Positions 5,570-30,202 are shown, counted from the stretch's first letter. The stretch: 64,000 nt of DNA from Antedon mediterranea (GCF_964355755.1 NC_092677.1:20234101-20298100), one strand, 5' to 3'. Made by a program: numbers and translations. The notes: generated from the sequence alone by a model not told the origin.

Positions 5570-8500
5570 CTCTCTCTCGCTGATCTATCTCTCTCTCGCT
5601 GATCTATATCTCTCTCTCTCTCTCGCTGATCTATCTCTCTCTCGCTGATCTATCTCTCTCTCGGTGATCTATCTCTCTCTCGCTGATCTATCTCCCTCTC
5701 GCTGATCTATCTCTCTCTCGCTCATCTATCTCTCTATCGCTGATCTATCTCTCTCTCGCTGATCTATCTCTCTCTCGCTGATCTATCTCTCTCTCGCTGA
5801 TCTATCTCTCTCTCTCTCTCGCTGATCTATCTCTCTTTCGCTGATCTATCTCTCTCTCGCTGATCTATATCTCTCTCGCTGATCTATCTCTCTCGCTGAT
5901 CTATCTCTCTCGCTGATCTATCTCTCTCTCGCTGATCTATCTATCTCTCTCTCGCTGATTTATCTATCTCTCTCTCGCTGATATATCTCTCTCTCGCTGA
6001 TCTATCTCTCTCTCGCTGATCTATCTCTCTCTCGCTGAACTATCTCTCTCTCGCTGATCTATCTCTCTCTCGCTGATCTATCTCTCTCTCTCGCTGATCT
6101 ATCTCTCTCTCTCACTTATCTATCTCTCTCTCTCTCTTGCCGATCTATCTATCTCTTTCTCGCTGATCTATCTATCTCTCTCTCGCTGATCTATCTATCT
6201 CTCTCTCGCTGATCTATCTATCTCTCTCTCGCTGATCTATCTATCTCTCTCTCTCGCTCATCTATCTATCTCTCTCTCGCTTATCTATCTCTCTCGCTGA
6301 TCTATCTATCTCTCTCTCGCTGATCTATCTATCTCTCTCTCTCGCTGATCTATCTCTCTCTCGCTGATCTATCTCTCTCTCGTTGATCTATCTCTGTCTC
6401 GCTGATCTATCTCTCTCTCTCGCTGATCTATCTCTCTCTCGCTGATCTATCTCTCTCGCTGATCTATCTATCTCGCTGATCTATCTCTCTCTCGCTGATC
6501 TATCTCTCTCTCTCGCTGATCTATCTCTCTCTCTCTCTCGCTGATCTATCTCCCTCTCGCTGATCTATCTCTCTCTCGCTGATCTATCTCTCTCTCGGTG
6601 ATCTATCTCTCTCTCGCTGATCTATCTCTCTCTCTCGCTGATCTATCTCTCTCTCTCGCTGATCTATTTCTCTCTCTCTCTGATCTATCTCCCTTTCGCT
6701 GATCTATCTCTCTCTCGCTAATCTATCTCTCTCTCGCTGATCTATCTCTCTCTTGCTGATCTATCTCTCTCTTTCTCGCTTATCTATCTCTCTCTCTCGC
6801 TGATCTATCTCTCTCTCGCTGATCTATCTCTCTCTCGCTGATCTATATCTCTCTCGCTGAACTATCTCTCTCGCTGATCTATCTCTCTCTCGCTGATCTA
6901 TCTCTCTCTCGCTGATCTATCTCTCTCTCTCTCTCGCTTATCTGTCTCTCTCTCTCTCTCTCTCGCCGATCTATCTATCTCTCTGTCGCTGATCTATCTA
7001 TCTCTCTCTCGCTGATCTATCTATCTCTCTCTCGCTGATCTATCTATCTCTCTCTCGCTCATCTATCTCTCTCTCGCTCATCTATCTCTCTCTCGCTCAT
7101 CTATCTATCTCTCTCTCGCTAATCTATCTCTCTCTCGCTGATCTATCTATCTCTCTCTCGCTGATCTATCTCTCTCTCGCTGATCTATCTCTCTCTCGTT
7201 GATCTATCTCTCTCTCGCTGATCTATCTCTCTCTCTCGCTGATCTATCTCTCTCTCGCTGATCTATCTCTCTCGCTGATCTATCTCTCTCTCGCTGATCT
7301 ATCTCTCTCTCGCTGATCTATATCTCTCTCTCTCGCTGATCTATCTCTCTCTCGCTGATCTATCTCTCTCTCGCTGATCTCTCTCTCTCTCGCTGATCTA
7401 TCTCTCTCTCTCACTGATCTATCTCTCTCTCTCGCTGATCTATCTCTCTCTCTCGCTGATCTATCTCTCTCTCGCTGATCTATCTATCTCTCTCTCGCTG
7501 ATCTATCTCTCTCTCTCGCTGATCATTCTAGCTCTCTCTCTCTCTCGCTGATCTATCTATCTCTCTCTCGCTGATCTATCTCTCTCTCTCGCTGATCATT
7601 CTAGCTCTCTCTCTCTCTCGCTGATCTATCTATCTCTCTCTCGCTGATCTATCTATCTCTCTCTCTCGCTGATCTATCTATCTCTCTCTCCCTGATCTCT
7701 CTATCTCTCATTCATTGATCTATCTCTCTCTCTCTCGCTAATCTATATATCTCTCTCTCGCTGATCTATCTCTCTCTCGCTGATTTATCTATCTCTCTCT
7801 CGCTGATCTATCTCTATCTCTCTCTCGCTGAACTATCTATCTCTCTCTCGCTGATCTATCTCTCTCTCTCTCTCTCGCTGATCTATCTCTCTCTCTCGCT
7901 GATCTATCTCTCCCTCGCTGATCTATCTCTCTCTTGCTGATCTATCTCTCTCTCGCTGATCTATCTCTCTCTCTCTCTCTCTCGCTGATCTATCTCTCTC
8001 TCGCTGATCTATCTCTCTCTCGCTGATCTATCTCTCTCTCGGTGATCTATCTCTCTCTCGCTGATCTATCTCTCTCTCTCGCTGATCTATCTCTCTCTCT
8101 CGCTGATCTATCTCTCTCTCTCGCTGATCTATTTCTCTCTCTCTCTGATCTATCTCCCCTTCGCTGATCTATCTCTCTCTCGCTAATCTATCTCTCTCTC
8201 GCTGATCTATCTCTCTCTAGCTGATCTATCTCTCTCTCTCTCGCTTATCTATCTCTCTCTCTCGCTGATCTATCTCTCTCTCGCTGATCTATCTCTCTCT
8301 CGCTGATCTATATCTCTCTCGCTGAACTATCTCTCTCGCTGATCTATCTCTCTCTCGCTGATCTATCTCTCTCTCTCTCTCTCTTATCTGTCTCTCTCTC
8401 TCTCTCTCTCTCACCGATCTATCTATCTCTCTGTCGCTGATCTATCTATCTCTCTCTCGCTGATCTATCTATCTCTCTCTCGCTGATCTATCTATCTCTC

Positions 8501-11500
8501 TCTCGCTGATCTATCTATCTCTCTCTCGCTCATCTATCTCTCTCTCGCTCATCTATCTATCTCTCTCTCGCTAATCTATCTCTCTCTCGCTGATCTATCT
8601 ATCTCTCTCTCGCTGATCTATCTCTCTCTCGCTGATCTATCTCTCTCTCGTTGATCTATCTCTCTCTCGCTGATCTATCTCTCTCTCTCGCTGATCTATC
8701 TCTCTCTCGCTGATCTATCTCTCTCGCTGATCTATCTCTCTCTCGCTGATCTATCTCTCTCTCTCGCTGATCTATATCTCTCTCTCTCGCTGATCTATCT
8801 CTCTCTCGCTGATCTATCTCTCTCTCGCTGATCTATCTCTCTCTCGCTGATCTCTCTCTCTCTCGCTGATCTATCTCTCTCTCTCACTGATCTATCTCTC
8901 TCTCGCTGATCTATCTCTCTCTCTCTCGATTATCTGTCTCTCTCTATCTCTCTCTCTCGCCGATCTATCTATCTCTCTGTCGCTGATCTATCTATCTCTC
9001 TATCTCGCTGATCTATCTATCTCTCTCTCGCTGATCTATCTATCTCTCTCTCGCTGATCTATCTATCTCTCTCTCGCTCATCTATCTCTCTCTCTCGCTC
9101 ATCTATCTATCTCTCTCTCGCTAATCTATCTCTCTCTCGCTGATCTATCTATCTCTCTCTCGCTGATCTATCTCTCTCTCGCTGATCTATCTCTCTCTCG
9201 TTGATCTATCTCTCTCTCGCTGATCTATCTCTCTCTCTCGCTGATCTATCTCTCTCTCGCTGATCTATCTCTCTCGCTGATCTATCTCTCTCTCGCTGAT
9301 CTATCTCTCTCTCTCGCTGATCTATATCTCTCTCTCTCGCTGATCTATCTCTCTCTCGCTGATCTATCTCTCTCTCGCTGATCTATCTCTCTCTCGCTGA
9401 TCTCTCTCTCTCTCGCTGATCTATCTCTCTCTCTCACTGATCTATCTCTCTCTCTCGCTGATCTATCTCTCTCTCTCGCTGATCTATCTCTCTCTCGCTG
9501 ATCTATCTATCTCTCTCTCGCTGATCTATCTCTCTCTCTCGCTGATCTATCTAGCTCTCTCTCTCTCTCGCTGATCTATCTATCTCTCTCTCGCTGATCT
9601 ATCTATCTCTCTCTCTCGCTGATCTATCTATCTCTCTCTCCCTGATCTCTCTATCTCTCATTCATTGATCTATCTCTCTCTCTCGCTAATCTATATATCT
9701 CTCTCTCGCTGATCTATCTCTCTCTCGCTGATCTATCTATCTCTCTCTCGCTGATCTATCTCTATCTCTCTCTCGCTGATCTATCTATCTCTCTCTCGCT
9801 GATCTATCTCTCTCTCTCTCTCGCTTATCTATCTCTCTCTCTCTCGCCGATCTATCTATCTCGCTGTCGCTGATCTATCTATCTCTCTCTCGCTGATCTA
9901 TCTATCTCTCTCTCTCGCTGATCTATCTATCTCTCTCTCTCTCGCTGATCTATCTATCTCTCTCTCGCTGATCTATCTCTCTCTCGCTGATCTATCTCTC
10001 TCGCTGATCTATCTCTCTCTCGCTGATCTATCTCTCTCTCGCTGATCTATCTCTCTCGCTGATCTATCTCTCTCTCGCTGATCTATCTATCTCTCTCTCG
10101 CTGATCTATCTATCTTTCTCTCGCTGATCTATCTCTCTCTCGCTGAACTATCTCTCTCTCTCGCTGATCTATCTCTCTCTCTCGCTGATCTATCTCTCTC
10201 TCGGTGATCTATCTCTCTCTCGCTGATCTATCTATCTCTCTCTCGCTGATCTATCTCTCTCTCGCTGATCTATCTCTCTCTCGTTGATCTATCTCTCTCT
10301 CGCTGATCTATCTCTCTCTCTCGCTGATCTATCTCTCTCTCGCTGATCTATCTCTCTCGCTGATCTATCTCTCTCTCGCTGATCTATCTCTCTCTCTCGC
10401 TGATCTATATCTCTCTCGCTGATCTCTCTCTCTCTCGCTGATCTATCTCTCTCTCTCACTGATCTATCTCTCTCTCGCTGATCTATCTCTCTCTCTCTCG
10501 CTTATCTGTCTCTCTCTCTCTCTCTCTCGCCGATCTATCTATCTCTCTGTCGCTGATCTATCTATCTCTCTATCTCGCTGATCTATCTATCTCTCTCTCG
10601 CTGATCTATCTATCTCTCTCTCGCTGATCTATCTATCTCTCTCTCGCTCATCTATCTCTCTCTCGCTCATCTATCTATCTCTCTCTCGCTAATCTATCTC
10701 TCTCTCGCTGATCTATCTATCTCTCTCTCGCTGATCTATCTCTCTCTCGCTGATCTATCTCTCTCTCGTTGATCTATCTCTCTCTCGCTGATCTATCTCT
10801 CTCTCTCGCTGATCTATCTCTCTCTCGCTGATCTATCTCTCTCGCTGATCTATCTCTCTCTCGCTGATCTATCTCTCTCTCTCGCTGATCTATATCTCTC
10901 TCTCTCGCTGATCTATCTCTCTCTCGCTGATCTATTTCTCTCTCGCTGATCTATCTCTCTCTCGCTGATCTCTCTCTCTCTCGCTGATCTATCTCTCTCT
11001 CTCACTGATCTATCTCTCTCTCTCGCTGATCTATCTCTCTCTCTCGCTGATCTATCTCTCTCTCGCTGATCTATCTATCTCTCTCTCGCTGATCTATCTC
11101 TCTCTCTCGCTGATCTATCTAGCTCTCTCTCTCTCTCGCTGATCTATCTATCTCTCTCTCGCTGATCTATCTATCTCTCTCTCTCGCTGATCTATCTATC
11201 TCTCTCTCCCTGATCTCTCTATCTCTCATTCATTGATCTATCTCTCTCTCTCGCTAATCTATATATCTCTCTCTCGCTGATCTATCTCTCTCTCGCTGAT
11301 CTATCTATCTCTCTCTCGCTGATCTATCTCTATCTCTCTCTCGCTGATCTATCTATCTCTCTCTCGCTGATCTATCTCTCTCTCTCTCTCGCTTATCTAT
11401 CTCTCTCTCTCTCGCCGATCTATCTATCTCGCTGTCGCTGATCTATCTATCTCTCTCTCGCTGATCTATCTATCTCTCTCTCGCTGATCTATCTATCTCT

Positions 11501-12445
11501 CTCTCTCTCGCTGATCTATCTATCTCTCTCTCGCTGATCTATCTATCTCTCTCTCGCTGATCTATCTCTCTCTCGCTGATCTATCTCTCTCGCTGATCTA
11601 TCTCTCTCTGGCTGATCTATCTCTCTGTCGCTGATTTATCTCTCTCGCTGATCTATCTCTCTCTCGCTGATCTATCTATCTCTCTCTCGCTGATCTATCT
11701 ATCTTTCTCTCGCTGATCTATCTCTCTCTCGCTGAACTATCTCTCTCTCTCGCTGATCTATCTCTCTCTCTCGCTGATCTATCTCTCTCTCTCTCGCTTA
11801 TCTATCTCTCTCTCTCTCGCCGATCTATCTATCTCGCTGTCGCTGATCTATCTATCTCTCTCTCGCTGATCTATCTATCTCTCTCTCGCTGATCTATCTA
11901 TATCTCTCTCTCTCGCTGATCTATCTATCTCTCTCTCGCTGATCTATCTATCTCTCTCTCGCTAATCTATCTCTCTCTCGCTGATCTATCTATCTCTTTC
12001 TCGCTGATCTATCTCTCTCTCGCTGAACTATCTCTCTCTCGTTGATCTATCTCTCTCTCGCTGATCTATATCTCTCTCTCGCTGATCTATCTCTCTCTCG
12101 CTGATCTATCTCTCTCTCGCTGATCTATCTCTCTCGCTGATCTATCTCTCTCTCGCTGATCTATCTCTCTCTCTCGCTGATCTATCTCTCTCTCTCTCTC
12201 TCTCTCGCTGATCTATCTCTCTCTCGCTGATCTATCTCTCTCTCGCTGATCTATCTCTCTCTCGGTGATCTATCTCTCTCTCGCTGATCTATCTCTTTCT
12301 CGCTGATCTATCTCTCTCTTGCTGATCTATCTCTCTCTCTCGCTGATCTATATCTCTCTCTCTCTCTCGCTGATCTATCTCTCTCTCGCTGATCTATATC
12401 TCTCTCGCTGATCTATCTCTCTCGCTGATCTATCTCTCTCTCGCT

Positions 12446-12490
<45 letters not shown>

Positions 12491-14007
12491 TCTATCTCTC
12501 TCTCTCGCTGATCTATCTCTCTCTCGCTGATCTATCTCTCTCTCGCTGATCTATCTCTCTCGCTGATCTATCTCTCTCTCGCTGATCTATCTATCTCTCT
12601 CTCGCTGATCTATCCATCTCTCTCTCGCTGATCTATCTCTCTCTCGCTGAACTATATCTCTCTCTCGCTGATCTATCTCTCTCTCTCGCTGATCTATCTC
12701 TCTAACTCTCTCTCTCACGCCGATCTATCTATCTCGCTGTCGCTGATCTATCTATCTCTCTCTCGCTGATCTATCTATCTCTCTCTCGCTGATCTATCTA
12801 TCTCTCTCTCGCTGATCTATCTATCTCTCTCTCGCTGATCTATCTCTCTCTCGGTGATCTATCTCTCTCGCTGATCTATCTCTCTCTTGCTGATCTATCT
12901 CTATCTCGCTGATCTATCTCTCTTTGCTGATCTATCTATCTCTCTCTCGCTGATCTATCTATCTCTCTCTCTCGCTGATCTATCTATCTCTCTCTCGCTG
13001 ATCTATCTCTCTCTCGCTGAACTATCTCTCTTTCTCGCTGATCTATCTCTCTCTCTCGCTGATCTATCTCTCTCTCTCTCGCTTATCTATCTCTCTCTCT
13101 CTCGCCGATCTATCTATCTCGCTGTCGCTGATCTATCTATCTCTCTCTCGCTGATCTATCTATCTCTCTCTCGCTGATCTATCTATATCTCTCTCGCTGA
13201 TATATATCTCTCTCGCTGATCTATCTATCTCTCTTTCGCTGATCTATCTCTCTCTCGCTGATCTATCTCCCTCTCTCGCTGATCTATCTCTCTCTCGCTG
13301 ATCTATATCTCTCTCTCTCGCTGATCTATCTCTCTCTCGCTGATCTATCTCTCTCGGTGATCTATCTCTCTTTCGCTGATCTATCTCCCTCTCGCTGATC
13401 TATCTCTCTCTCGCTGATCTATCTCTCTCGCTGATCTATCTCTCTCTCGCTGATCTATCTCTCTCTCTCGCTGATCTATCTCTCTCTCTCTCGCTGATCT
13501 ATCTCTCTCTCGCTGATCTATCTCTCTCTCTCGCTGATCTATATCTCTCTCGCTGATCTATCTCTCTCTCGCTGATCTATCTCTCTCTCTCTCGCTGATC
13601 TATCTCTCTCTCGCTGATCTATCTCTCTCTCGCTGATCTATCTATCTCTCTTTCGCTGATCTATCTCTCTCTCGCTGATCTATCTCCCTCTCTCGCTGAT
13701 CTATCTCTCTCTCGCTGATCTATCTCTCTCTCTCTCGCTGATCTATCTCTCTCTCGCTGATCTATCTCTCTCGGTGATCTATCTCTCTTTCGCTGATCTA
13801 TCTCCCTCTCGCTGATCTATCTCTCTCTCGCTGATCTATCTCTCTCTCGCTGATCTATCTCTCTCTCTCTCTCTCTCGCTGATCTATCTCTCTCTCGCTG
13901 ATCTATCTCTCTCTCGCTGATCTATCTCTCTCTCGCTGATCTATCTCTCTCTCGCTGATCTATCTCTCTTGCTTATCTATCTCTCTCTCGCTGATCTATC
14001 TCTCTCT
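5570..14007 (+). repeat. (CT)n-CGCTGATCTAT minisatellite, block 2
   Basis: Continuous tandem units; rare variants recur at ~1.57 kb spacing (CTAGCTCTCT at 9551 and 11119). Confidence 0.97.
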
Positions 14008-14034
14008 CACATTCATTTAGACTAGACAAAAAGT
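14008..14034 (+). other. Left end: heptamer CACATTC + 11-bp spacer + nonamer ACAAAAAGT
   Basis: CACATTC ATTTAGACTAG ACAAAAAGT read directly. Confidence 0.7.
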
Positions 14035-16126
14035 AGTGAGCCCTCTAGCTGTCATTTGTGATTTCTGAGATTCATCGAAGCGCGACAACATCACCCGGAA
14101 ATGATGTGAATTTAAAATTTTAATAGGGTTAAACTCTTTTAACCAATTGAAAGCCTTAAATTATAGTTCCTTATGAATAATTCATGAGAATAATTAAAGC
14201 AAGGGTTGAAGAAGCACGTGACTTGGTTTTTGGAACAAGATAGCAGTTATGATCGTGTCAGGTAATCATTGAATTTGCCCTTCTTTTTGTTAGATTTTAT
14301 ACGGTTTTTATCAATAATAATATTGTACATTTTTTCGAGACCATAAAAAAATTCCTCAATTTTTGAGTAAACGAGTGACTAAATAAAAAGTTACTATGTA
14401 ATGTAAATATTCGTTTGACAAAAAATGGGCATGTTGATATTTTCAGGTATTTTTTAAATGGCGATTGAAATAGGTAAACAAATCACATGTATAACGGTGG
14501 TTTGTGCGAAGCTGGGCCTAGCCTTGATGGTCCAACGCGTACTGCGTGTTAATCAATGCGTATAAGATACACACGTAGTCGTTTAGGCCAATTTTTTTAC
14601 ATGTTTATTTATTAATATTAGGCCCCATTCTCATTTATTTTAATTAATGTACTGGATGTACCACACTTTACAACTCTATATAAATTAGATTTTGTACTTG
14701 TATTAAATTCAAACGTTTTATGGGATTTAAAACATTAAGCTAGGCCTTGTAGTAGGCCTAGGACCACATGCTAGGTTTTTCAGCCTAATTTATCATGCAG
14801 TATACCTCTAGCCCATCTTTCAAATACATATTTAAATTAACATACTTTTTATATTTCTATATTTTTTATAGGATCCGACTCCAGAAAACATTTGCATCAC
14901 TTGAAAGCGGCTATTTATGGACAGCATGTTGACATTCAAAAAAATTTGACCAGCTCTTATTAATTAAATGTCTTTTAAATTAAAGGTTTTCATTATAATG
15001 AAATGTACGGTGACAGAAATTTAAATGATTCTCATAATTGAGGTTTCTCATAGATTTAATATTAAAGGTAAATAAATAAAGCTGTTTGTTATTCTTGCCT
15101 TTAGAAATAAACTTGTTGTTAGTACTATATTATTAGGCCTAGGCCATTATACAAATTAAAACTAAAAAATACAGTAATCATATTTAAGGCCTACACAGCA
15201 GTACCTTACTTGATTTGATTTTTTCAAATATTTAATTGATGAAATAAATGAGTTTGACTTTTCAATTAGTTGCCATTTTATTAGTTTCTGTGTGTTTTTA
15301 TTTATATTCTTAAAATAATTGTATTGTATACAACAACTTTAAAGTATTGCGCAGAAGTGATCAAATTATAGTAGGCCTATTTTTATGTTATTTTCGCTTA
15401 AAATTATGCAGTTAAAGTATTGATTTTAGGGTGACAGAAACGGTTAGGCAAGAAAAGAAATAAATTTGGGAATTTTATTATGCGGTAAAAACAATTAAAC
15501 ATAATTTACCCCTAATGCATGTAAATGTAGAAAACATTGCTTATGTTAGCGCGACCGAAACTCGCTACTGGGAATAGAGCCTGCAAAAGCGACGCGTACA
15601 CACCCACTCGGGAACCGGCGGAGCGCGATCGATAGTAAATATACCCGATTTCAAATGATCATAAAATTCTTTTAAAAAATATCAACATTTTGATTTTTTG
15701 AGGATTAAAAGTAAAGATATTGAAATTTAACATAATATTTACAAATATGTATTTAAAAATTCGGAAACAATTTTAGCGTGATATTAAAACAAACTTTTTA
15801 GAGTTCAGCGATTTTCTACGCAGGATTTGTTTGTTTTCATTGTTAATGGGCGAATGTTACCTAAACTAGAATCGTTATAAATCTTTTAAATTTGTATTAT
15901 AAGTAATTTCTTTAGTATTCTTAGTAACATCGAATGTCTCTAATTAACTAGCAGTTATTTATACTAACTATTGTTCAATAATAAGCGTGTATGAAGTGAA
16001 AATCTATAGTAATAATGTTCTTAGTCAGTTCGTCTCGCTCGCGTGAAGTCTTCGGGTTTCTCAATACAATTCTCAGCGGTAAAGATAGGCTCGCGCTAAT
16101 GTTTAAATCAAAAGCGCTCTCAAAAC

Positions 16127-16163
16127 ACTTTTTGTCCAAAATTCGCAATATGACGTGAGTGTG
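16127..16163 (-). other. Right end: heptamer CACACTC + 21-bp spacer + nonamer ACAAAAAGT
   Basis: Reverse complement reads CACACTC ACGTCATATTGCGAATTTTGG ACAAAAAGT. Confidence 0.7.
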
Positions 16164-16242
16164 CTCTCTCGCTGATCTATCTCTCTCTCGCTGATCTATC
16201 TATCTCTCTTTCGCTGATCTATCTCTCCCTCTCGATGATCTA

Positions 16243-16299
<57 letters not shown>

Positions 16300-18434
16300 T
16301 CTATCTATCTCTCTCTCGCTGATCTATTTCTCTCTCTCTCGCTGATGATCTATCTCTCTCTCGCTGATCTATCTCCCTCTCTCGCTGATCTATCTCTCTC
16401 TCGCTGATCTATCTCTCTCTCTCGCTGATCTATCTCTCTCTCGCTGATCTATCTCTCTCTCTCGCTGATCTATCTCTCTCGCTGATCTATCTATATCTCT
16501 CTCGTTGATCTATCTATCTTTTTCTCGCTGATCTATCTATCTCTCTCTCGCTGATCTATGTCTCTCTCGCTGATCTATCTCTCTCTCGCTGATCTATCTC
16601 TCTCTCGCAGATCTATCTATCTCTCTCTCGCTCATCTATCTCTCTCTCGCTCATCTATCGATCTCTCTCTCGCTAATCTATCTCTCTCTCTCTCGCTGAT
16701 CTATCTATCTCTCTCTCGCTGATCTATCTCTCTCTCGCTGATCTCTCTCTCTCTCTCTCTCGTTGATCTATCTCTCTCTCGCTGATCTATCTCTCTCTCT
16801 CGCTGATCTATCTCCCTCTCGCTGATCTATCTCTGTCTCTCGCTGATCTATCTCTCTCTCGCTGATCTATCTCTCTCTCGCTGATCTATATCTCTCTCGC
16901 TGATCTATCTCTCTCGCTGATCTATCTCTCTCTCGCTGATCTATCTCTCTCTCTCTCTCGCTGATCTATCTCTCTCTCTCTCGCTTATCTATCTCTCTCT
17001 CGCTGATCTATCTCTCTCGCTGATCTATCTCTCTCTCTCTCGCTGACCTATCTCTCTCTCGCTGATCTATCTATCTCTCTCTCGCTGATCTATCTATCTC
17101 TCTCTCGCTGATCTTTCTCTCTCTCGCTGATCTATCTCTCTCTCGCTGATTTATCTATCTCTCTCTCGCTGATCTATCTCTCTCGCTGATCTATCTCTCT
17201 CTCGCTGATCTATCTCTATCTCGCTGATCTATCTCTCTCTCGCTGATCTATCTCTCTCTCTCTCACTTATCTATCTCTCTCTCTCTCGCCGATCTATCTA
17301 TCTCTTTCTCGCAGATCTATCTATCTCTCTCTCGCTGATCTATCTCTCTCTCTCTCGCTGATCTATCTATCTCTCTCTCTCGCTGATCTATCTATCTCTC
17401 TCTCTCTCTCGCTGATCTATCTATCTCTCTCTCGCTTATCTATCTCTCTCTCGCTGATCTATCTCTCTCTCTCTCTCTCGCTGATCTATCTCTCTCTCGC
17501 TGATCTATCTCTCTCTCGCTGATCTATCTATCTCTCTTTCGCTGATCTATCTCTCTCTCGCTGATATATCTATCTCTCTCTCGCTGATTTATCTATCTCT
17601 CTCTCGCTGATCTATCTCTCTCGCTGATGTATCTCTCTCTCTCGCTGATCTATCTCTCTCTCGCTGATCTATCTCTCTCTCGCTGATCTATCTCTCTCTC
17701 GCTGATCTATATATCTCTCTCTCTCGCTCATCTATCTCTCTCTCGCTCATCTATCTATCTCCCTCTCGCTAATCTATCTCTCTCTCGCTGATCTATCTAT
17801 CTCTCTCTCGCTGATCTATCTCTCTCTCGCTGATCTATCTCTCTCTCGTTGATCTATCTCTCTCTCGCTGATCTATCTCTCTCTCTCGCTGATCTATCTC
17901 TCTCTCTCGCTGATCTATCTCTCTCTCTCTCTCTCTCTCGCTGATCTATCTCTCTCTCGCTGATCTATCTCTCTCTCGCTGATCTATCTCTCTCTCTCGC
18001 TGATCTATCTATCTCTCTCGCTGATCTATCTATCTCTCTCTCGCTGATCTTTCTGTCTCTCGCTGATCTATCTCTCTCGCTGATCTATCTCCCTCTCTCG
18101 CTGATCTATCTCTCTCTCGCTGATCTATCTCTCTCTCTCGCTGATCTATCTCTCTCACTGATCTATCTATATCTCACTCGTTGATCTATCTATCTTTTTC
18201 TCGCTGATCTATCTATCTCTCTCTCGCTGATCTATCTATCTCTCTCTCGCTGATCTATGTCTCTCTCGCTGATCTATCTCTCTCTCGCTGATCTATCTCT
18301 CTCTCGCAGATCTATCTATCTCTCTCTCGCTCATCTATCTCTCTCTCGCTCATCTATCGATCTCTCTCTCGCTAATCTATCTCTCTCTCGCTGATCTATC
18401 TATCTCTCTCTCGCTGATCTATCTCTCTCTCGCT

Positions 18435-18471
<37 letters not shown>

Positions 18472-19988
18472 GATCTATCTCTCTCTCGCTGATCTATCTC
18501 TCTCTCTCGCTGATCTATCTCTCTCTCGCTGATCTATCTCTCTCTCTCGCTGATCTATCTCTCTCTCGCTGATCTATCTCTCTCTCGCTGATCTATATCT
18601 CTCTCGCTGATCTATCTCTCTCGCTGATCTATCTCTCTCTCGCTGATCTACCTCTCTCTCTCTGTCGCTGATCTATCTCTCTCTCTCGCTGATCTATCTC
18701 TCTCTCGCTGATCTATCTCTCTCGCTGATCTATCTCTCTCTCTCTCTCGCTGACCTATCTCTCTCTCTGATCTATCTATCTCTCTCTCGCTGATCTATCT
18801 ATCTCTCTCTCGCTGATCTTTCTCTCTCTCGCTGATCTATCTCTCTCTCGCTGATTTATCTATCTCTCTCTCGCTGATCTATCTCTCTCGCTGATCTATC
18901 TCTCTCTCGCTGATCTATCTCTATCTCGCTGATCTATCTCTCTCTCGCTGATCTATCTCTCTCTCTCTCGCTTATCTATCTCTCTCTCTCTCGCCGATCT
19001 ATCTATCTCTTTCTCGCTGATCTATCTATCTCTCTCTCGCTGATCTATCTATCTCTCTCTCGCTGATCTATCTATCTCTCTCTCTCGCTGATCTATCTAT
19101 CTCTCTCTCTCTCTCTCTCGCTGATCTATCTATCTCTCTCTCGCTTATCTATCTCTCTCTCGCTGATCTATCTCTCTCGCTGATGTATCTCTCTCTCTCG
19201 CTGATCTATCTCTCTCTCGCTGATCTATCTCTCTCTCGCTGATCTATCTCTCTCTCGCTGATCTATATATCTCTCTCTCTCGCTCATCTATCTCTCTCTC
19301 GCTCATCTATCTATCTCCCTCTCGCTAATCTATCTCTCTCTCGCTGATCTATCTATCTCTCTCTCGCTGATCTATCTCTCTCTCGCTGATCTATCTCTCT
19401 CTCGTTGATCTATCTCTCTCTCGCTGATCTATCTCTCTCTCTCGCTGATCTATCTCTCTCTCTCGCTGATCTATCTCTCTCTCTCTCTCTCTCGCTGATC
19501 TATCTCTCTCTCGCTGATCTATCTCTCTCTCGCTGATCTATCTCTCTCTCTCGCTGATCTATCTATCTCTCTCGCTGATCTATCTATCTCTCTCTCGCTG
19601 ATCTTTCTGTCTCTCGCTGATCTATCTCTCTCGCTGATCTATCTCCCTCTCTCGCTGATCTATCTCTCTCTCGCTGATCTATCTCTCTCTCTCGCTGATC
19701 TATCTCTCTCACTGATCTATCTATATCTCACTCGTTGATCTATCTATCTTTTTCTCGCTGATCTATCTATCTCTCTCTCGCTGATCTATCTATCTCTCTC
19801 TCGCTGATCTATGTCTCTCTCGCTGATCTATCTCTCTCTCGCTGATCTATCTCTCTCTCGCAGATCTATCTATCTCTCTCTCGCTCATCTATCTCTCTCT
19901 CGCTCATCTATCGATCTCTCTCTCGCTAATCTATCTCTCTCTCGCTGATCTATCTATCTCTCTCTCGCTGATCTATCTCTCTCTCGCT

Positions 19989-20027
<39 letters not shown>

Positions 20028-23000
20028 GATCTATCTCTCTCTCGCTGATCTATCTCTCTCTCTCGCTGATCTATCTCTCTCTCGCTGATCTATCTCTCTC
20101 TCTCGCTGATCTATCTCTCTCTCGCTGATCTATCTCTCTCTCGCTGATCTATATCTCTCTCGCTGATCTATCTCTCTCGCTGATCTATCTCTCTCTCGCT
20201 GATCTACCTCTCTCTCTCTCTCGCTGATCTATCTCTCTCTCTCGCTGATCTATCTCTCTCTCGCTGATCTATCTCTCTCGCTGATCTATCTCTCTCTCTC
20301 TCTCGCTGACCTATCTCTCTCTCTGATCTATCTATCTCTCTCTCGCTGATCTATCTATCTCTCTCTCGCTGATCTTTCTCTCTCTCGCTGATCTATCTCT
20401 CTCTCGCTGATTTATCTATCTCTCTCTCGCTGATCTATCTCTCTCGCTGATCTATCTCTCTCTCGCTGATCTATCTCTATCTCGCTGATCTATCTCTCTC
20501 TCGCTGATCTATCTCTCTCTCTCTCGCTTATCTATCTCTCTCTCTCTCGCCGATCTATCTATCTCTTTCTCGCTGATCTATCTATCTCTCTCTCGCTGAT
20601 CTATCTATCTCTCTCTCGCTGATCTATCTATCTCTCTCTCTCGCTGATCTATCTAATCTCTCTCTCTCTCTCTCTCGCTGATCTATCTATCTCTCTCTCG
20701 CTTATCTATCTCTCTCTCGCTGATCTATCTCTCTCTCTCTCTCGCTGATCTATCTCTCTCTCGCATATCTATCTCTCTCTCGCTGATCTCTCTATCTCTC
20801 TTTCGCTGATCTATCTCTCTCTCGCTGATCTATCTATCTCTCTCTCGCTGATTTATCTATCTCTCTCTCGCTGATCTATCTCTCTCGCTGATGTATCTCT
20901 CTCTCTCGCTGATCTATCTCTCTCTCGCTGATCTATCTCTCTCTCGCTGATCTATATATCTCTCTCTCGCTCATCTATCTCTCTCTCGCTGATCTATCTA
21001 TCTCCCTCTCGCTAATCTATCTCTCTCTCGCTGATCTATCTATCTCTCTCTCGCTGATCTATCTCTCTCTCGCTGATCTATCTCTCTCTCGTTGATCTAT
21101 CTCTCTCTCGCTGATCTATCTCTCTCTCTCGCTGATCTATCTCTCTCTCTCGCTGATCTATCTCTCTCTCTCTCTCTCTCTCGCTGATCTATCTCTCTCG
21201 CTGATCTATCTCTCTCTCGCTGATCTATCTCTCTCTCTCGCTGATCTATCTCTCTCTCGCTGATCTATCTCTCTCTCTCTCTCTCGCTGACCTATCTCTC
21301 TCTCGCTGATCTATCTATCTCTCTCGCTGATCTATCTATCTCTCTCTCGCTGATCTTTCTGTCTCTCGCTGATCTATCTCTCTCGCTGATCTATCTCCCT
21401 CTCTCGCTGATCTATCTCTTTCTCGCTGATCTATCTCTCTCTCTCGCTGATCTATCTCTCTCTCTGATCTATCTCTCTCTCTCGCTGATCTATCTCTCTC
21501 TCGCTGATCTATCTATCTCTCTCTCTCGTTGATCTATCTATCTCTCTCTCGCTGATCTATCTCTCTCTCGCTGATCTATCTCTCTCTCGCTGATCTATCT
21601 CTCTCTTGCTGAACTATCTCTCTCTCTCGCTGATCTATCTCTCTCTCGCTGATCTATCTCTCTCTCTCTCTCGCTTATCTATCTCTCTCTCTCTCGCCGA
21701 TCTATCTATCTCTTTCTCGCTGATCTATCTATCTCTCTCTCGCTGATCTATCTATCTCTCTCTCGCTGATCTATCTATCTCTCTCTCTCGCTGATCTATC
21801 TATCTCTCTCTCTCGCTGATCTATCTATCTCTCTCTCGCTGATCTATCTCTCTCTCTCGCTTATCTATCTCTCTCTCGCTGATCTATCTCTCTCTCGCTG
21901 ATCTATCTCTCTCTCGCTGATCTCTCTCTCTCTCTCTCTCGCTGATCTATCTCTCTCTCTCACTGATCTTTCTCTCTCTCTCGCTGATCTATCTATCTCT
22001 CTCTCGCTGAACTATCTATCTCTCTCTCTCTCGCTGATCTATCTATCTCTCTCTCCCTGATCTCTCTATCTCTCATTCGCTGATCTATCTCTCTCTCTCG
22101 CTAATCTATATATCTCTCTCTCGCTGATCTATCTCTCTCTCGCTGATCTATCTATCTCTCTCTCGCTGATCTATCTCTCTCTCGCTGATCTATCTATCTC
22201 TCTCGCTGATCTATCTCTCTCTCGCTGATCTATCTATCTCTCTCTCGCTGATCTATCTATCTCTCTCTCGCTGATCTTTCTCTCTCTCGCTGATCTATCT
22301 ATCTCTCTCTCGCTGATCTATCTCTCTCTCTCTCTCGCTGATCTATCTCTCTCTCTCTCTCTCGCTTATCTATCTATCTCTCTCTCGCTGATCTATCTCT
22401 CTCTCGCTGATCTATCTATCTCTCTTTCGCTGATCTATCTCTCCCTCTCGATGATCTATCTCTCTCTCTTTCTCTCTCTCTCTCTCGCTGATCTATCTCT
22501 CTCTCTCTCGCTGATTTATTTATCTCTCTCTCGCTGATCTATCTCTCTCGCTGATGTATCTCTCTCTCTCTCTCGCTGATCTATCTCTCTCTCGCTGATC
22601 TATCTCTCTCTCGCTGATCTATATATCTCTCTCTCGCTCATCTATCTCTCTCTCGCTCATCTATCTATCTCCCTCTCGCTAATCTATCTCTCTCTCGCTG
22701 ATCTATCTATCTCTCTCTCTCGCTGATCTATCTCTCTCTCGCTGATCTATCTCTCTCTCGTTGATCTATCTCTCTCTCGCTGATCTATCTCTCTCTCTCG
22801 CTGATCTATCTCTCTCTCTCGCTGATCTATCTCTCTCTCTCTCTCTCTCTCGCGGATCTATCTCTCTCTTTCTCTCGCTGATTTATCTCTCTCTCGCTGA
22901 TCTATCTCTCTCTCGCTGATCTATCTCTCTCTCGCTGATCTATCTCTCTCTCTCGCTGATCTATCTCTCTCTCTCGCTGATCTATCTCTCTCTCGCTGAT

Positions 23001-24277
23001 CTATCTCTCTCTCGCTGATCTATCTCTCTCTCGCTGATCTATCTCTCTCTCGCTGATCTATCTCTTTCTCTCTCGCTGATCTATTTCTCTCTCTCTCTCT
23101 CTCGCTGATCTATCTATCTCTCGCTGATATATCTCTCTCTCACTGATCTATCTCTCTCTCGCTGATCTATCTCTCTCTCTCGCTGATCTATCTCTCTCTC
23201 TCTCGCTGATCTATCTCTCTCTCGCTGATCTATCTCTCTCTCTCTCGCTGATCTATCTCTCTCTCTCGCTGATCTATCTCTCTCACTCGCTGATCTATCT
23301 CTCTCTCGCTGATCTATCTATCTCTCTCTCGCTGATCTATCTCTCTCTCTCGCTGATCTATCTCTCTCTCGCTGATCTATCTCTCTCGCTGATCTATATC
23401 TCTCTCACTGATCTATCTCTCTCGCTTATCTATCTCTCTCTCGCTGATCTATATCTCTCTCGCTGATCTATCTCTCTCGCTGATCTATCTCTCTCTCGCT
23501 GATCTATCTCTCTCTCGCTGATCTACCTCTCTCTCTCGCTGATCTATCTATCTCTCTCGTTGATCTATCTATCTCCCTCTCGCTAATCTATCTATCTCTC
23601 TCTCGCTGATCTATTTCTCTCTCGCTGATCTATCTCTCTCTCTCGCTGATCTATCTCTCTCTCTCGCTGATCTATCTCTCTATCGCTGATCTATCTCTCT
23701 CTCTCACTGATCTATCTCTCTCTCGCTGATCTATCTCTCTCTCGTTGATCTATCTCTCTCTCGCTGATCTATCTCTCTCGCTGATCTATCTCTCTCTCGC
23801 TGATCTATCTCTCTCTCGCTGATATATCTCTCTCTCGCTGATCTATCTCTCTCTCTCGCTGATCTGTCTTTCTCTCTCGCTGATCTATCTCTCTCTCTCG
23901 CTGATCTATCTCTCTCTCTCTCTCTCGCTGATTTATCTCTCTCTCGCTGATCTATCTCTCTCTCGCTGATCTATCTCTCTCTCGCTGATCTATCTCTCTA
24001 TCTCGCTGATCTATCCCTCTCTCGCTGATCTATCTCTCTCTCGCTGATCTATCTCTCTCTCGCTGATCTATCTCTCTCTCGCTGATCTATCTCTCTCTCG
24101 CTGATCTATCTCTCTCTCGCTGATCTATCCCTCTCTCGCTGATCTATCTCTCTCGCTGATCTATCTCTCTCTCGCTGATCTATCTCTCTCTCGCTGATCT
24201 ATCTCTCTCTCGCTGATCTATCTCTCTCTCGCTGATCTATCTGTCTCTCGCTGATCTATCTCTCTCTCGCTGATCTA
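16164..24277 (+). repeat. (CT)n-CGCTGATCTAT minisatellite, block 3
   Basis: Continuation of block 2 after the insertion; internal ~1554-bp duplication (ATCTCACTCGTTG at 18171 and 19725). Confidence 0.97.
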
Positions 24278-24735
24278 TAACTAGTTATGTCAAAAAAATA
24301 AAAGGGTCGAAATTTGGCCATTTTCCGAAATTTTTTTCAAAAAATAACCAAATTGTCTACCATTTAAAATTCAATAATTAGGCTATAATATATCCATTTA
24401 TGCACATATATTTTGTTAACATGATCTTATAGAGCCATAGTAAGTAGTTATGTCAAAAAATAAAAGGGTCGAAATTTGGCCATTTTTCGAAAATTTTCCT
24501 TTGGGGGACCACAGGATTTTTTCGAAAAATTGACAACATTTCCACTTTTTAAAATTCGAAAATTATGCTATAATATTGTAATTTATACAAATATATTGTG
24601 CTAACATCATCTTATAGAGAAATAGCAGCTAGTTATGTCAACAAAAAAAAAGGGTCGAAAGATGGCTAAAATTCCCACTTTTTAAAATTCAATAATTATG
24701 CTATAATATTGCTATTTATGCACATATATTGTGCT
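24278..24735 (-). repeat. ~186-bp satellite, inverted, ~2.5-3 units
   Basis: TAACTAGTTATGTCAAAAAAATAAAAGGGTCGAAA and CATCATCTTATAGAG are reverse complements of the 2878-5569 monomer. Confidence 0.93.
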
Positions 24736-25502: not shown

Positions 25503-28010
25503 TTATAAATAGACTATTACAAACTGTTCTGTCATGTACTACATTATGACATAACGGGTAATGCTCAGATTTGAGTGGTCCCAGTAGTGGGTTCGAACCT
25601 GTAAGGATATTTTTTTTTATTTGAAAATAAATATTGTTTTTGAAAGTGAGATATTTTGAGGGTTGTAAATGTCAGGCATAAACAAGTGGACATTTTTTTC
25701 AATCAGAAACAAAGTTGCATGGCATTATTTTTCATTGATTGATCATTCATTTCATATAAATAGACTGTTATCAGCTCTTCTGTCATCTACTGGTTTGTGG
25801 CGTAACCGGTAGTGCTCATGTTTGAGTTCTCGCAGTAGTGGGTTCGAACCTCTACGAATATTTTTTTTCTTTTTTTTTTTTAATTGAAAATAAATATTGT
25901 TTTTGAAAATGAGATATTTTTTAGGGTTGTGAATGTCACGCCTAAACAAAAGGATCTTTTTTAAAATCAGAAACAAAGTTGCATGGCATTATTTTTCATT
26001 GATTGATCATCCATTTCATATAAATAGACTATTATCAGCTCTTCAGTCATATACTGGTTTGCGGCGTAACGGGTAATGCTCAGGTTTGAGTGATTTCAAT
26101 AGTGGGTTCGAACTTCTAGGGATATTTTTTTCTTTTTTTTTATTTGAAAATAAGTATTGTGTTTGAAAGTGAGATATTTTGAGGGTTGTAAATGTCAGGC
26201 CTAAACAAGTGAACCTTTTTTAAAATCAGAAACAAAGTTACATGGCATTATTTTTCATTGATTTATTATTCATTTCATATAAATAGAGTATTATCAGCTC
26301 TTCAGTCATCTACTGGTTTGTGGCGTAACGGATAATGCTCAGGTTTGAGTGCTCTCAATAGTGGGTTCGAACCTCTAGGGATTTTTTTTTTTTAAATTGA
26401 AAATAAATATTGTTTTTGAAAGTGAGATATTTTGAGGGTTGTAAATGTCAGGCCTAAACAAGTGAACCTTTTTTAAAATCAGAAACAAAGTTGCATGGCA
26501 TTATTTTTCATTGATTGATCATTCATTTCATATAAATAGACTATTATCAGCTCTTCAGTCACCTACTGGTTTGTGGCGTAACGGGTAATGCTCAGGTTTG
26601 AGTGCTCTGAGTAGTGAGTCGAACCTCTAGGGATATTTTTTTTCTTTTTTTTTAAATTGAAAATAAATATGGTTTTTGAAAGTGAGATATTTTGAGGGTT
26701 GTAAATGTCAGGCCTAAACAAGTGAACCTTTTTTAAAATCAGAAACAAAGTTACATGGCATTATTTTTCATTGATTTATTATTCATTTCATATAAATAGA
26801 GTATTATCAGCTCTTCAGTCATCTACTGGTTTGTGGCGTAACGGATAATGCTCAGGTTTGAGTGCTCTCAATAGTGGGTTCGAACCTCTAGGGATTTTTT
26901 TTTTTTAAATTGAAAATAAATATTGTTTTTGAAAGTGAGATATTTTGAGGGTTGTAAATGTCAGGCCTAAACAAGTGAACCTTTTTTAAAATCAGAAACA
27001 AAGTTGCATGGCATTATTTTTCATTGATTGATCATTCATTTCATATAAATAGACTATTATCAGCTCTTCAGTCACCTACTGGTTTGTGGCGTAACGGGTA
27101 ATGCTCAGGTTTGATTGCTCTGAGTAGTGGGTCGAACCTCTAGGGATATTTTTTTTCTTTTTTTTAAAATTGAAAATAAATATGGTTTTTGAAAGTGAGA
27201 TATTTTGAGGGTTGTAAATGTCAGGCCTAAACAAGTGGACCTTTTTTAAAATCAGAAACAAAGTTGCATGGCATTATTTTTCATTGATTGATCATTCATT
27301 ATATATATATAGACTATTATCAGCTCCTCAGTCATCTACTGGTTTGTGGCGTAACGGGTAATGCTCAGGTTTGAGTGCTCTCAGTGGTGGGTTCGAACCT
27401 ATACGGGTATTTTTTTTCTTTTTTTTAATTGAAAATAAATATTGTTTTTGAAAGTGAGATACTTTGAGGGTTGCAACTGTCAGGCCTAAACAAGTGGACC
27501 TTTTTAAAAATCAAAAACAAAGTTGCATGGCATTATTTTTCATTGATTTATTATTTATTTCATATAAATAGAGTATTATCAGCTCTTCAGTCATCTACTG
27601 GTTTGTGGCGTAACAGGTAATGCTCAAGTTTGAGTGCTCTCACTAGTGGGTTCGAATCTCTACGGATATTTTGTTTCTTTTTTTTTTAATTTAAAATCTG
27701 TTTTTGAAAGTGAGATATTTTGAGGGTTGTAAATGTCAGGCCTAAACAAGTGAACCTTTTTAAAAATCAGAAACAAAGTTGCATGGCATTATTTTTTATT
27801 GATTTATTATTAATTTCATATAAATAGAGTATTATCAGCTCTTCAGTCATCTACTGGTTTGAGGCGTAACGGGTAATGCTCAAGTTTGAGTGCTCGCAGT
27901 AGTGGGTTGGAACCTCTAGGGATATTTCTTTTCTTTTTTTTTTAATTGAAAATAAATATTTTTTTTTGAAAGTGAGATATTTTTAGGGTTGTAAATGTCA
28001 GGCCTAAACC
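25503..28010 (+). repeat. ~257-bp tandem array with a tRNA-derived Pol III cassette per unit (10 copies)
   Basis: Each unit: TATAAATA...TGGCGTAACGG (A-box)...GGTTCGAACC (B-box)...T-run. B-boxes at ~25590, 25842, 26105, 26364, 26618, 26877, 27130, 27390, 27649, 27905. Confidence 0.92.
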
Positions 28011-28029
28011 TTTCAGGCCTGAACCTTTT

Positions 28030-28358
28030 TACTCGGGGTACCCGAGTCTAGAACTCATTTTCTCCTCTTCTTCCATCTGGACACTATTGAGTAAAAAGTG
28101 CGATTTTTAAATTACTACTCCTCCCTTAATAGTTGTAGTATTGAGCTGGGATTTGGCATGAATATACTACAGGAACATGTCCTAAAATCTATCGAGCCGG
28201 ATTTTTAAATTTCAAACCGGATGCAGCCATATGACGTCTCGAAGATGGTACCATATAGCCGTATTTGGTAGGTTATTGATGTGTATGTGACGTCACATCC
28301 CGTCTTATGACGTCATTACAGCTTCATTTGCTGTACCCCGAGTATCGCACATTCGTGC
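28030..28358 (+). mobile_element. HINE/DINE-1-like Helentron derivative, family 1, full length
   Basis: 12-bp subterminal IR TACTCGGGGTAC/GTACCCCGAGTA, 5' palindrome ACTCGGG-GTA-CCCGAGT, 3' hairpin GCAC-ATTC-GTGC, T-run flanks. Confidence 0.82.
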
Positions 28359-28362
28359 TTTT

Positions 28363-28545
28363 TACTCGGGGTACCCGAGTCTAGGACTTACTCATTTTCT
28401 CCTCCTCCATCTGGACACTATTGAGTAAAAAGTGCGATTTTTAAAGTACTACTCCTCCATTATTAGTTGTAGTATTGAGCTGGGATTTGGCATGAATATA
28501 CTACAGGGACATGTCCTCAAAGCTATAGAGCCGGATTTTTAAATT
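28363..28545 (+). mobile_element. HINE family 1, 3'-truncated, in tandem with the previous copy
   Basis: Same 5' end and core; stops after GAGCCGGATTTTTAAAT. Confidence 0.75.
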
Positions 28546-28625
28546 TTTGTTAATTAATTTGTTTAATTAAGAAGCCAAAATGTGTGACACACACCACAGC
28601 GTTATGTAGTTATATGGTTATATGC

Positions 28626-28697
28626 GGCTTCTTGGCGTAGTGGTTATCACGTTTACTTAACACGCAGAAGGTACCTGGTTCGAGCCCGGACGAAACC
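28626..28697 (+). pseudogene. tRNA-Val(AAC)-derived copy, type A
   Basis: GGCTTCTTGGCGTAGTGGTTATCACGTTTACTTAACACGCAGAAGGTACCTGGTTCGAGCCCGGACGAAACC plus T-run; acceptor and anticodon stem mismatches. Confidence 0.8.
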
Positions 28698-28913
28698 TTT
28701 TTTTTTAAACTTTATGGTGAAAAGTACTGTATACGCAATATGATAATTATACACAGTATATCTTATTTTTATTATTTTTTTAAATACTTATTTTGTGTAA
28801 TCGGTAATTATCACTTTTACACATGTTTATTTTTCTTTGTGCTTATTACCATATTTATTTGTAATTTAAATGGATTAAAAAACTTTCTGTAACCCACATT
28901 TTTAGTGTAAGTG

Positions 28914-28984
28914 GGTTTCGTAGTGTAGTGATTGTCAAGTCTGCTTAACACGCAGAAGGTCCCGTTTAGAGCCCTGGCGAAACC
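28914..28984 (+). pseudogene. tRNA-Val(AAC)-derived copy, type B
   Basis: GGTTTCG/CGAAACC acceptor stem and TCTGC-TTAACAC-GCAGA arm intact; B-box damaged (GTTTAGA). Confidence 0.8.
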
Positions 28985-29135
28985 TATTTTTCTTTAACTT
29001 TAACTGTATACGTCTGTATACAGCTTCTTTCTCTGTACCCCGAGTATTGCACATTCGTGCTTTTTTGTTAATTAATTTGTTTAATTAGGAAGCCACAATG
29101 TGTGACACACACCACAGCGCTATGTAGTTATATGC

Positions 29136-29210
29136 GGCTTGTTGGCGTAGTGGTTATCACGTTTACTTAAAAACACGCAGAAGGTACCTGGTTCGAGCCC
29201 GGGCGAAACC
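29136..29210 (+). pseudogene. tRNA-Val-derived copy, type A, with anticodon-loop insertion
   Basis: As 28626 copy but loop reads TTAAAAACAC. Confidence 0.78.
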
Positions 29211-29245
29211 TTTTTTTTTTAACTTTATGGTGAAAAGTAGTGTAT

Positions 29246-29650
29246 AAGATAAGATAAGATAAGATAACTTTTATTGATCCTCAAAAAGGAAATTCATTGC
29301 TCATCATAATAACAAAGAACACACAATAAAAACAAATATAGCATAAAACCATTCTAATAAAAACATCTACAAAATTACAAGATAAAATTTTCTTCTTGAC
29401 TTCCTGTTGTACTAGATGATACCGGAGGGAATAAAGGATTTAGCAAATCGATTTGTTTTCACACTGAGGAGCCTCAATCTACCACTTGGATTAAGTTGGT
29501 CTATGATTACTTTGTGGAGAGGATGAGAGGCATCCGATTCAATGCGTTCGAAATATTTCTGGAGGTGTTCTAGGTGCACATCGGTAAAGGAAGGCAGTTC
29601 CAGACCAATCATTTTACCAGCCCGACGGATGAAAGTTTCAAGGCGTCCTT
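29246..29650 (-). mobile_element. 5'-truncated non-LTR retrotransposon 3' end, Rex1/Babar-like
   Basis: Peptide ...IESDASHPLH...LNPSGRLRLLSVKTNRFAKSFIPSGI fits the C-terminus of Rex1/Babar-type RT ORFs. 3' UTR ends GAATTTCCTTTTTGAGGATCAATAAAAG with a (TTATC)n tail. Interrupts the flank TGTA|TACGCAA seen intact elsewhere. Confidence 0.85.
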
Positions 29651-29727
29651 TACGCAATATGATAATTATACACAGTATATCTTATTTTTATTATTTTTTT
29701 AAATATTTATTTTGTGTAATCGGTAAA

Positions 29728-29972: not shown

Positions 29973-30048
29973 TTGTTTTGTTAAATAATTTGTTTAATTA
30001 AGAAGACACAATGTGTGACACACACCACAGCGTTATGTAGTTATATGC

Positions 30049-30120: not shown

Positions 30121-30202
30121 TTTTTTTTTTAAACTTTATGGTGAAAAGTACTGTATACGCAATATGATAATTATACACAGTATATCTTATTTTTATTATT
30201 TT

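Follow-up and report, generated by a model that had tools for sequence, protein, structure and literature searches.

Chapaev elements outside the Chapaev3 group make 4-bp TSDs. Their DDE transposases carry C(2)C and H(3-4)H motifs. Chapaev as a whole is recognized by CAC...GTG termini and 3-4-bp TSDs (PMC4079192), Chapaev3 is set apart by a 3-bp TWA duplication (PMC4079192, PMC3014272), and one source files Chapaev under EnSpm (PMC4455052). The CMCT lineages have CA..TG ends in common and TSDs of 2-5 bp, with no 6-bp TSD given for the clade in the available text (PMC12730594). According to two sources, the Chapa domain, an N-terminal zinc-finger domain, is found in Chapaev and RAG1L and is lacking in Transib (PMC4411706; bioRxiv 10.64898/2026.01.24.700457). 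Transib and RAGL elements are described with 5-bp, GC-rich TSDs (PMC1131882; PMC7204232; bioRxiv 10.1101/100735; PMC10629977), and a G adjoins the 5' tip in 46 of 46 TransibN1_AG and 11 of 11 Transib-N1_SP left flanks, as counted by eye (PMC1131882 Fig S4), while 12 of the 16 TSDs listed for non-autonomous RAGL elements end in G (PMC7204232 Fig S2b). In a 2026 preprint, Nozomi-related transposases of the Transib clade are described as making 2-3-bp TSDs, with a caution against letting a TSD outweigh transposase homology (10.64898/2026.08.26.747230).

RSS-like ends that are short at the 5' side and long at the 3' side have been known since 2005 in Transib5, Transib2_AG and TransibN1-3_AG (Kapitonov and Jurka, PMC1131882), and such asymmetric Transib ends have since been discussed as a 'Transib seed' (PMC8355894). 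PflRAGL-A of Ptychodera flava has a 10-bp end asymmetry (Martin et al. 2023, PMC10462144/PMC10629977). The RAG enzyme copes with the spacer difference, and imposes 12/23 pairing, through a nonamer-binding dimer that pivots (PMC10462144), and ProtoRAG also prefers unlike ends (PMC8289069). Ends unequal by about 10 bp are therefore already published for five Transib families and PflRAGL-A, so the geometry of the element described here is not new, contrary to what a sequence-only reading of the locus had implied (PMC1131882, PMC10462144).

A multi-copy, gene-less element in satellite DNA

The window, that is, the whole 64-kb stretch of DNA that was analysed, consists almost entirely of satellite DNA, and a (CT)n-rich array of 19-bp monomers within it is split by an AT-rich insert (Table 1). 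This insert belongs to a real, young, multi-copy, non-autonomous transposon family, as indicated by some 30-60 copy-equivalents, divergence of ~1%, a left boundary that stays at 14008, and flanking sequences of several unrelated kinds. No open reading frame of 80 aa or more was found in the 2,156-bp element, and no transposase was found within the 64-kb window.

Table 1. Coordinates of the element, its ends, its spliced RNA and its insertion site within the window
Feature	Coordinates	Strand	Details and basis
Host 19-bp (CT)n-rich satellite array, insertion site of the element	5570..24278	.	Split by the AT-rich 2,156-bp insert
Non-autonomous DNA transposon copy	14008..16163	+	2,156 bp, 30.6% GC; multi-copy by contig depth and flanks
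Candidate 4-bp TSD CTCT, left copy	14004..14007	+	2 or 6 bp also fit
Left heptamer CACATTC	14008..14014	+	True terminus at 14008, where the main contigs of X1, X2 and X5 stop
Short-end spacer, 11 bp	14015..14025	+	No indel listed in 3/3 runs, including the 82.5%-identical relative
Left nonamer ACAAAAAGT	14026..14034	+	7/9 to the RSS nonamer
GAGCCCT motif	14038..14044	+	3 bp behind the left nonamer
Exon 1 of the short spliced RNA	14239..14261	+	ATG at 14249; X7 contig with adaptor-like loose end; joint in X5
Intron GT...AG, 610 bp	14262..14871	+	Joint seen at depth 282 in X5 and 7 in X7, not in X1 or X6
Exon 2	14872..15265	+	34-codon spliced frame with stop at 14961-14963; AATAAA at 15243; A tail behind 15265
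GAGCGCT motif	16113..16119	-	7 bp behind the right nonamer
Right nonamer ACAAAAAGT	16127..16135	-	Same as the left nonamer
Long-end spacer, 21 bp	16136..16156	-	Read from the sequence; in diverged single contigs one lacks 10 bases and one lacks 1
Right heptamer CACACTC	16157..16163	-	Read from the sequence
Candidate 4-bp TSD CTCT, right copy	16164..16167	+	2 or 6 bp also fit

The two ends, at 14008-14034 and, reverse-complemented, 16163-16127, have a 10-bp word in common, GACAAAAAGT, and the nonamer contained in it occurs at only two places in the 64 kb when both strands are considered, namely at the two ends. Against the RSS consensus as printed in PMC8289069, each heptamer matches at 5/7 positions and the nonamer at 7/9. 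The best ungapped match between the 11-bp and 21-bp spacers is 6/11, a likeness no better than chance, so the spacers are not recent duplicates of one another. Among 20,000 draws of 45-bp internal segment pairs, with overlapping draws skipped, 299 had an inverted 9-mer in common and 38 had one at an offset of 9-11. The sequence-only reading is thus upheld in most of its description of the element, which it had given as non-autonomous with CAC...GTG ends and its transposase outside the window, as CACATTC-11-ACAAAAAGT on the left and CACACTC-21-ACAAAAAGT on the right, with identical nonamers, dissimilar spacers 10 bp apart in length, and RSS matches of 5/7 and 7/9; contig depth and unrelated flanks now show that the element is also multi-copy. 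The GAGC(C/G)CT motif that it had placed behind each nonamer is indeed present, but in different registers, since the distance to the nonamer differs between left and right.

Twelve public sequencing runs contained the stretch or part of it, and contigs from five of these (X1, X2, X5, X6 and X7) were compared. In the organism A runs X1 and X5, contigs covered all 30 bins of the element. Depth ratios gave about 30-59 (X1), 34 (X2) and 31-39 (X5) copy-equivalents, relative to diverged contigs taken as single-copy (depths of 27.7, 52.4 and 5-6, respectively), figures that are rough because contig depth does not translate directly into copies. Compared with the majority contigs, the window copy has at least 16 substitutions and at least 3 small indels in 2,156 bp (~1%), and divergence this low implies a recently active transposase that could be found and assayed. 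In all three runs in which the left tip was read (two samples), the main contigs end exactly at 14008 with unrelated sequence beyond, identifying CAC as the true left tip and placing copies at different sites. The left flanks seen, read with 14 bp of flank included, end in ...GAACT, ...AACAT, ...GTACA and ...TAGGC, in addition to the satellite, and are mutually unrelated. The right terminus is placed from the satellite junction and one diverged contig.

Two X1 contigs concern the satellite itself. One joins the (CT)n satellite directly to the element interior at 15496, which indicates that another copy in the satellite is probably truncated or rearranged. The other, of low depth (6.2) and covering 14001-14033, has one CT unit fewer before CAC (three, not four) with the CT|CAC phase kept, reflecting either slippage or a second satellite insertion. 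Within the AT-rich element, a CpG-rich block at 15540-15660 reaches an X1 depth of ~1,450-1,500 compared with 850-900, with a loose end at 15616; it may be a sequence that some other repeat also contains, or a further promoter-like relic. Outside organism A, the spliced, A-tailed form (14239-15265) was present in an organism C run at ~98.5% identity (4 substitutions and 2 gaps in ~400 nt), and three more organism C runs had a similar share of words; this could be due to a close relative, horizontal transfer or carry-over. Organism B was rejected as a second host, as it yielded part of the right half only, at depth 2-3, with longer matches being 22-43-bp AT-rich chance similarities.

An Rfam search of the element returned 0 matches. 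Pattern scans of metagenome contigs with the exact and the degenerate left end gave 0 stretches each, as did the degenerate left-end pattern in prokaryote genomes. Viral contigs gave four short-end matches and one long-end match, all five of which were dismissed as chance because they stood alone without a partner end and only one of the five had any further similarity to the element, over 20 bp. The family may already be catalogued in Repbase or Dfam.

Elsewhere in the window, a large 87-88-bp satellite with higher-order periods of 175, 253 and 341 bp occupies 1506-2874 and 33284-61690, with 186-bp and about 260-bp arrays nearby. Positions 28000-33280 hold tandem and inverted mixed units with tRNA-like segments (TGG...GGTTCGA boxes), SINE-like by eye, and with palindromic TACTCGGGGTACCCGAG words. 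An 89-aa open frame on the minus strand (29415-29681), resembling by eye the C terminus of the reverse-transcriptase ORF of a non-LTR retrotransposon, adjoins a short TAAGA repeat at ~29245-29265. Two related RSS12-like words, CAC-N4, 12 bp and ACAAAAATC, lie in opposite orientation at 24770 (+) and 62097 (-) in a duplicated block found at the margins of the 24-62 kb region, and are probably a chance occurrence within an inverted duplication.

Insertion footprint and transposon group

For this single insertion, which lies in a microsatellite, TSDs of 2, 4 and 6 bp are compatible with the flanks, and those of 3, 5 and 7-10 bp are incompatible. At 5 bp, the only insertion for which both flanks are available opposes TCTCT to CTCTC, and the flank comparison therefore bears out the earlier statement that a perfect 5-bp TSD is excluded while 4 bp (also 2 or 6) fits, with the proviso that a 5-bp TSD could be disguised by a 1-bp junction indel. 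The empty sites implied by TSDs of 6, 4 and 2 bp correspond to 186, 66 and 8 of the 314 satellite monomers, so that 4 bp beats 2 and 6 beats 4, and it is only prior knowledge of the clade that favours 4 bp. The right flank recurs, identical over 107 bp, at 22380-22486; this copy was considered as an empty-site paralogue and rejected, as the monomer order on its left side differs and it therefore gives no TSD. It includes rare monomer variants, pointing to a higher-order duplication within the satellite. No TSD was common to the diverged left end (...GTACA) and the diverged right end (ATTTA...), which consequently represent different insertions or have decayed. Target symmetry (A first, T last), judged by eye, was present in 3/6 flanks at 4 bp, 3/6 at 6 bp and 1/6 at 5 bp, differences too weak to discriminate.

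The base preceding CAC was T in at least 550/1632 of the junction depth in X1 (34%), 800/1798 in X2 (44%) and 107.5/188 in X5 (57%). No G was found before CAC among flanks with a visible last base, in a set of junction contigs that is incomplete and could hide a G in X1 and X2, one non-T flank in X2 being unread. None of the five left flanks read ended in TWA, and together with the incompatibility of a 3-bp TSD this separates the element from Chapaev3.

The CAC...GTG ends, which are those of Chapaev, point to the CMCT clade (PMC12730594). Within it, a TSD of 2, 4 or 6 rather than 5 bp, and T before CAC, a position mostly occupied by G in the targets of Transib and RAGL, favour Chapaev, towards which we lean as the mover; this class assignment rests on the ends and the footprint, since the transposase itself was not found. 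Of the two options raised by the sequence-only reading, a Chapaev/CMC family with RSS-like geometry thus appears to fit better than a RAG-like family with an unusual TSD.

A RAGL or Transib mover is possible, with considerably less weight. On this explanation, the element would be a non-autonomous RAGL or Transib with their known short-5'/long-3' ends, its lack of a 5-bp TSD reflecting an indel at the junction, a sporadic 4-bp event, or a target that has changed in its lineage. The heptamer-spacer-nonamer terminus of Transib is present in the element, and unequal RSS-like ends of the same polarity occur in five Transib families (PMC1131882) and in PflRAGL-A (PMC10462144, PMC10629977). RAG leaves TSDs of 3 or 4 bp in 8-31% of its events (PMC1131882), Nozomi-related Transibs have non-5-bp TSDs (10.64898/2026.08.26.747230), and non-autonomous RAGL elements with both TIRs measure 0.7-2.6 kb, many near 2.2 kb (PMC7204232). 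Set against this, no 5-bp TSD, GC-rich or otherwise, accompanies a copy that is only ~1% from the majority contigs, and T rather than G precedes CAC in the incomplete junction set, with no GC-rich target seen. The last heptamer base is C, compared with the G of the Transib consensus CACAATG (PMC1131882). RAGL elements carry beside the heptamer a conserved A-rich TR2 block of 9-10 bp at both ends (PMC10462144, PMC7204232), which was not found here, the two spacers in register sharing only their first base at the start and 4/11 bases overall, and the right half showed no splice joint or relic of the RAG2L gene that lies convergent to RAG1L in autonomous RAGL elements. We therefore consider this explanation rather doubtful.

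A mover from some other group is unlikely. The specific form that we considered, improbable in our judgement, assigns the element to another CAC-ended group, either EnSpm/Mirage/ESTA, if the TSD is 2 bp, or a lineage as yet undescribed, if it is 6 bp, the RSS likeness of its A-rich subterminal word having arisen by convergence. Both lengths fit the flanks, 6 bp restores the commonest monomer (186/314), A-tracts are common in an element of 70% AT, and CMCT lineages have CA..TG ends with 2-5-bp TSDs (PMC12730594). Yet a 2-bp TSD requires a rare monomer (8/314), the available text lists no 6-bp TSD for the clade (PMC12730594), and the flanks show neither the TA of ESTA nor the TWA of Chapaev3.

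A spliced RNA from the short-end side

The element gives a spliced, polyadenylated RNA running from the short end, which lies upstream of the transcript. A 460-nt contig from X7 (organism C) joins 14239-14259 to 14870-15265, the GT..AG boundaries being obtained when the cut is moved two places to the right, and carries 15 A behind 15265. The letters before 14239 in this contig we take to be a cDNA template-switch adaptor, and the RNA probably starts near 14237-14239; these limits are approximate, because contigs cannot prove start, strand or level. Regarding run kinds, X7 is labelled 'DNA?' and X5 (organism A) is RNA by guess, none of the runs being on record as RNA. Depth in X5 is roughly tenfold higher over the first half of exon 2 than over the rest.

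The spliced 34-codon ORF contains H-x3-L eleven residues from its start, followed by Y...VDIQK, and these are similar to two stretches that lie apart in the Chapa domain alignment (PMC4411706 additional file 5). The full ORF pattern was recovered in 0/20,000 shuffles, for a motif chosen after inspection of the sequence, and a VDIQK-like word alone in 62/20,000. The Chapa zinc ligands CRxCG and HP..C..C are absent from the 34-codon ORF, and protein searches with the exon-2 frame, one of them covering longer proteins only, found no relative. The spliced RNA is likely a relic of the 5' part of a transposase gene, a suggestion that we treat as a hint rather than a result. Since the Chapa domain also occurs in RAG1L, such a relic would be compatible with a RAGL element too (PMC4411706).

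End geometry and comparison with known systems

The short end is preserved in an 82.5%-identical relative, in which the 11-bp spacer is kept and the first 53 bp hold at most six differences, as against 19 in the 66 bp that follow (Fisher p 0.016, rising to 0.08 when CpG transitions are left out). The long end is not fixed among relatives, given diverged right ends with 11- and 20-bp spacers. The first of these, a single-copy contig (87% identical, depth 27.6), has the heptamer, a spacer of 11 bp and a nonamer missing one A; it continues behind 16132, where exactly 10 spacer bases are gone but GTGTG still forms the end. In the second right end, likewise diverged and single-copy, the spacer measures 20 bp and the nonamer carries two changes. 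Both contigs may be dead copies. Grounds for abandoning the 11/21 geometry had been named at the outset, among them spacer lengths varying freely between related families, and these are borne out in part by the one right end that is shorter by exactly 10 bases. This 11-bp right end counts against an obligatory 11/21 pair, and its exact 10-bp loss fits a need for helical phase without unlike ends, or even an older symmetric state.

These observations bear on a further explanation, by which a CMCT-clade element needs helical phase only and a tolerated 10-bp indel became fixed in one family, so that 11/21 would be a private feature and not a 12/23-like rule. In its favour, the diverged right end is missing exactly the 10 bases by which 21 exceeds 11, with GTGTG retained at its tip; just one multi-copy family was seen, and most Transib families have symmetric ends (PMC1131882, PMC8289069). 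The contig with the 11-bp right end is single-copy, however, has lost a nonamer A as well and could be a dead copy; the flanks of the diverged left end that was seen do not match those of the diverged right end. The two spacers are alike only at chance level (6/11), arguing against a recent mutual duplication, and the 5'-short polarity recurs in Transib and RAGL-A. On balance we hold this explanation to be somewhat unlikely.

Our preferred reading, to which we give a probability of about 0.5, is that of a young gene-less family with a short (7+11+9) and a long (7+21+9) end, likely derived by internal deletion from a Chapaev-type DDE element and served by a transposase in trans. A CMCT-clade transposase encoded elsewhere would move the element by cut-and-paste, leaving, if it is of Chapaev identity, a 4-bp TSD, and the RNA would be a remnant of the promoter, first exon, first intron and start of the transposase gene. 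The tip and the nonamer would lie on the same helix face at both ends, because the distances between them differ by one turn, and the nonamer is predicted to be a protein-binding site that keeps helical phase with the tip. By analogy with RAG, the transposase may grip each end twice, cutting at the CAC tip and holding the A-tract nonamer with a separate DNA-binding module. The weakest step in this scheme, also drawn by analogy, is that the short end would preferentially pair with the long end, as under the RAG 12/23 rule. That a Chapaev-type enzyme outside Transib/RAG, making 4-bp duplications and using a near-RSS nonamer, pairs an 11-bp end with a 21-bp end is put forward as a tentative possibility.

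Compared with Chapaev outside Chapaev3 (PMC4079192, PMC4411706, PMC12730594), the element has the same CAC...GTG termini, flanks that fit a 4-bp TSD (and 2 or 6 bp as well) and a possible Chapa relic. It differs in its bipartite heptamer/nonamer ends one turn apart, for which our literature search found no description in Chapaev, and as far as that search reached the unequal RSS-like geometry would be new on such an element.

Like the asymmetric Transibs, the element has a CAC heptamer, an A-rich nonamer, and short 5' and long 3' ends, with the short end upstream of the transcript, and their families also include non-autonomous members (PMC1131882). It departs from Transib in its footprint, as Transib makes 5-bp GC-rich TSDs ending in G, whereas 5 bp does not fit here and T is common before CAC. 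In TransibN1_AG and TransibN2_AG, moreover, the two spacers start with the same bases (PMC1131882), in contrast to the unrelated spacers of the element. With PflRAGL-A it has in common the heptamer, the 10-bp spacer asymmetry, an AT-rich nonamer-like word and a short end on the side of the transposase start; PflRAGL-A, however, has a TR2 block, 5-bp GC-rich TSDs and RAG1L and RAG2L genes, none of which the element has, and the nonamer of the element is closer to the RSS (7/9).

If the mover is a Transib or RAGL transposase, the family adds one more member with an unusually RSS-like nonamer, which would be of modest interest. If the mover is Chapaev, unequal heptamer/nonamer ends would be either ancestral to the wider clade or easily re-invented. 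Should the pairing of 11-bp and 21-bp ends by a Chapaev enzyme also prove true, the 12/23 design would be older than the divergence of Chapaev from Transib/RAG, and the present family, being young, would offer a live, RAG2-free test system.

The V(D)J 12RSS and 23RSS resemble the ends of the element in the heptamer (5/7), the nonamer (7/9) and unrelated spacers about one turn apart in length, a likeness to the 12/23 rule that concerns end sequence only. The spacers of the element, at 11 and 21 bp, are shorter than the 12 and 23 bp of the RSS, with 21 falling outside the 23 +/- 1 given in PMC1131882, and its signals bound a mobile element in a satellite rather than receptor gene segments. The origin of the V(D)J 12/23 asymmetry is disputed between a Transib seed (PMC8355894) and a RAGL-A transposon (PMC10629977), and a Chapaev mover, if confirmed, would mean that neither Transib nor RAGL-A ends are special evidence for that origin.
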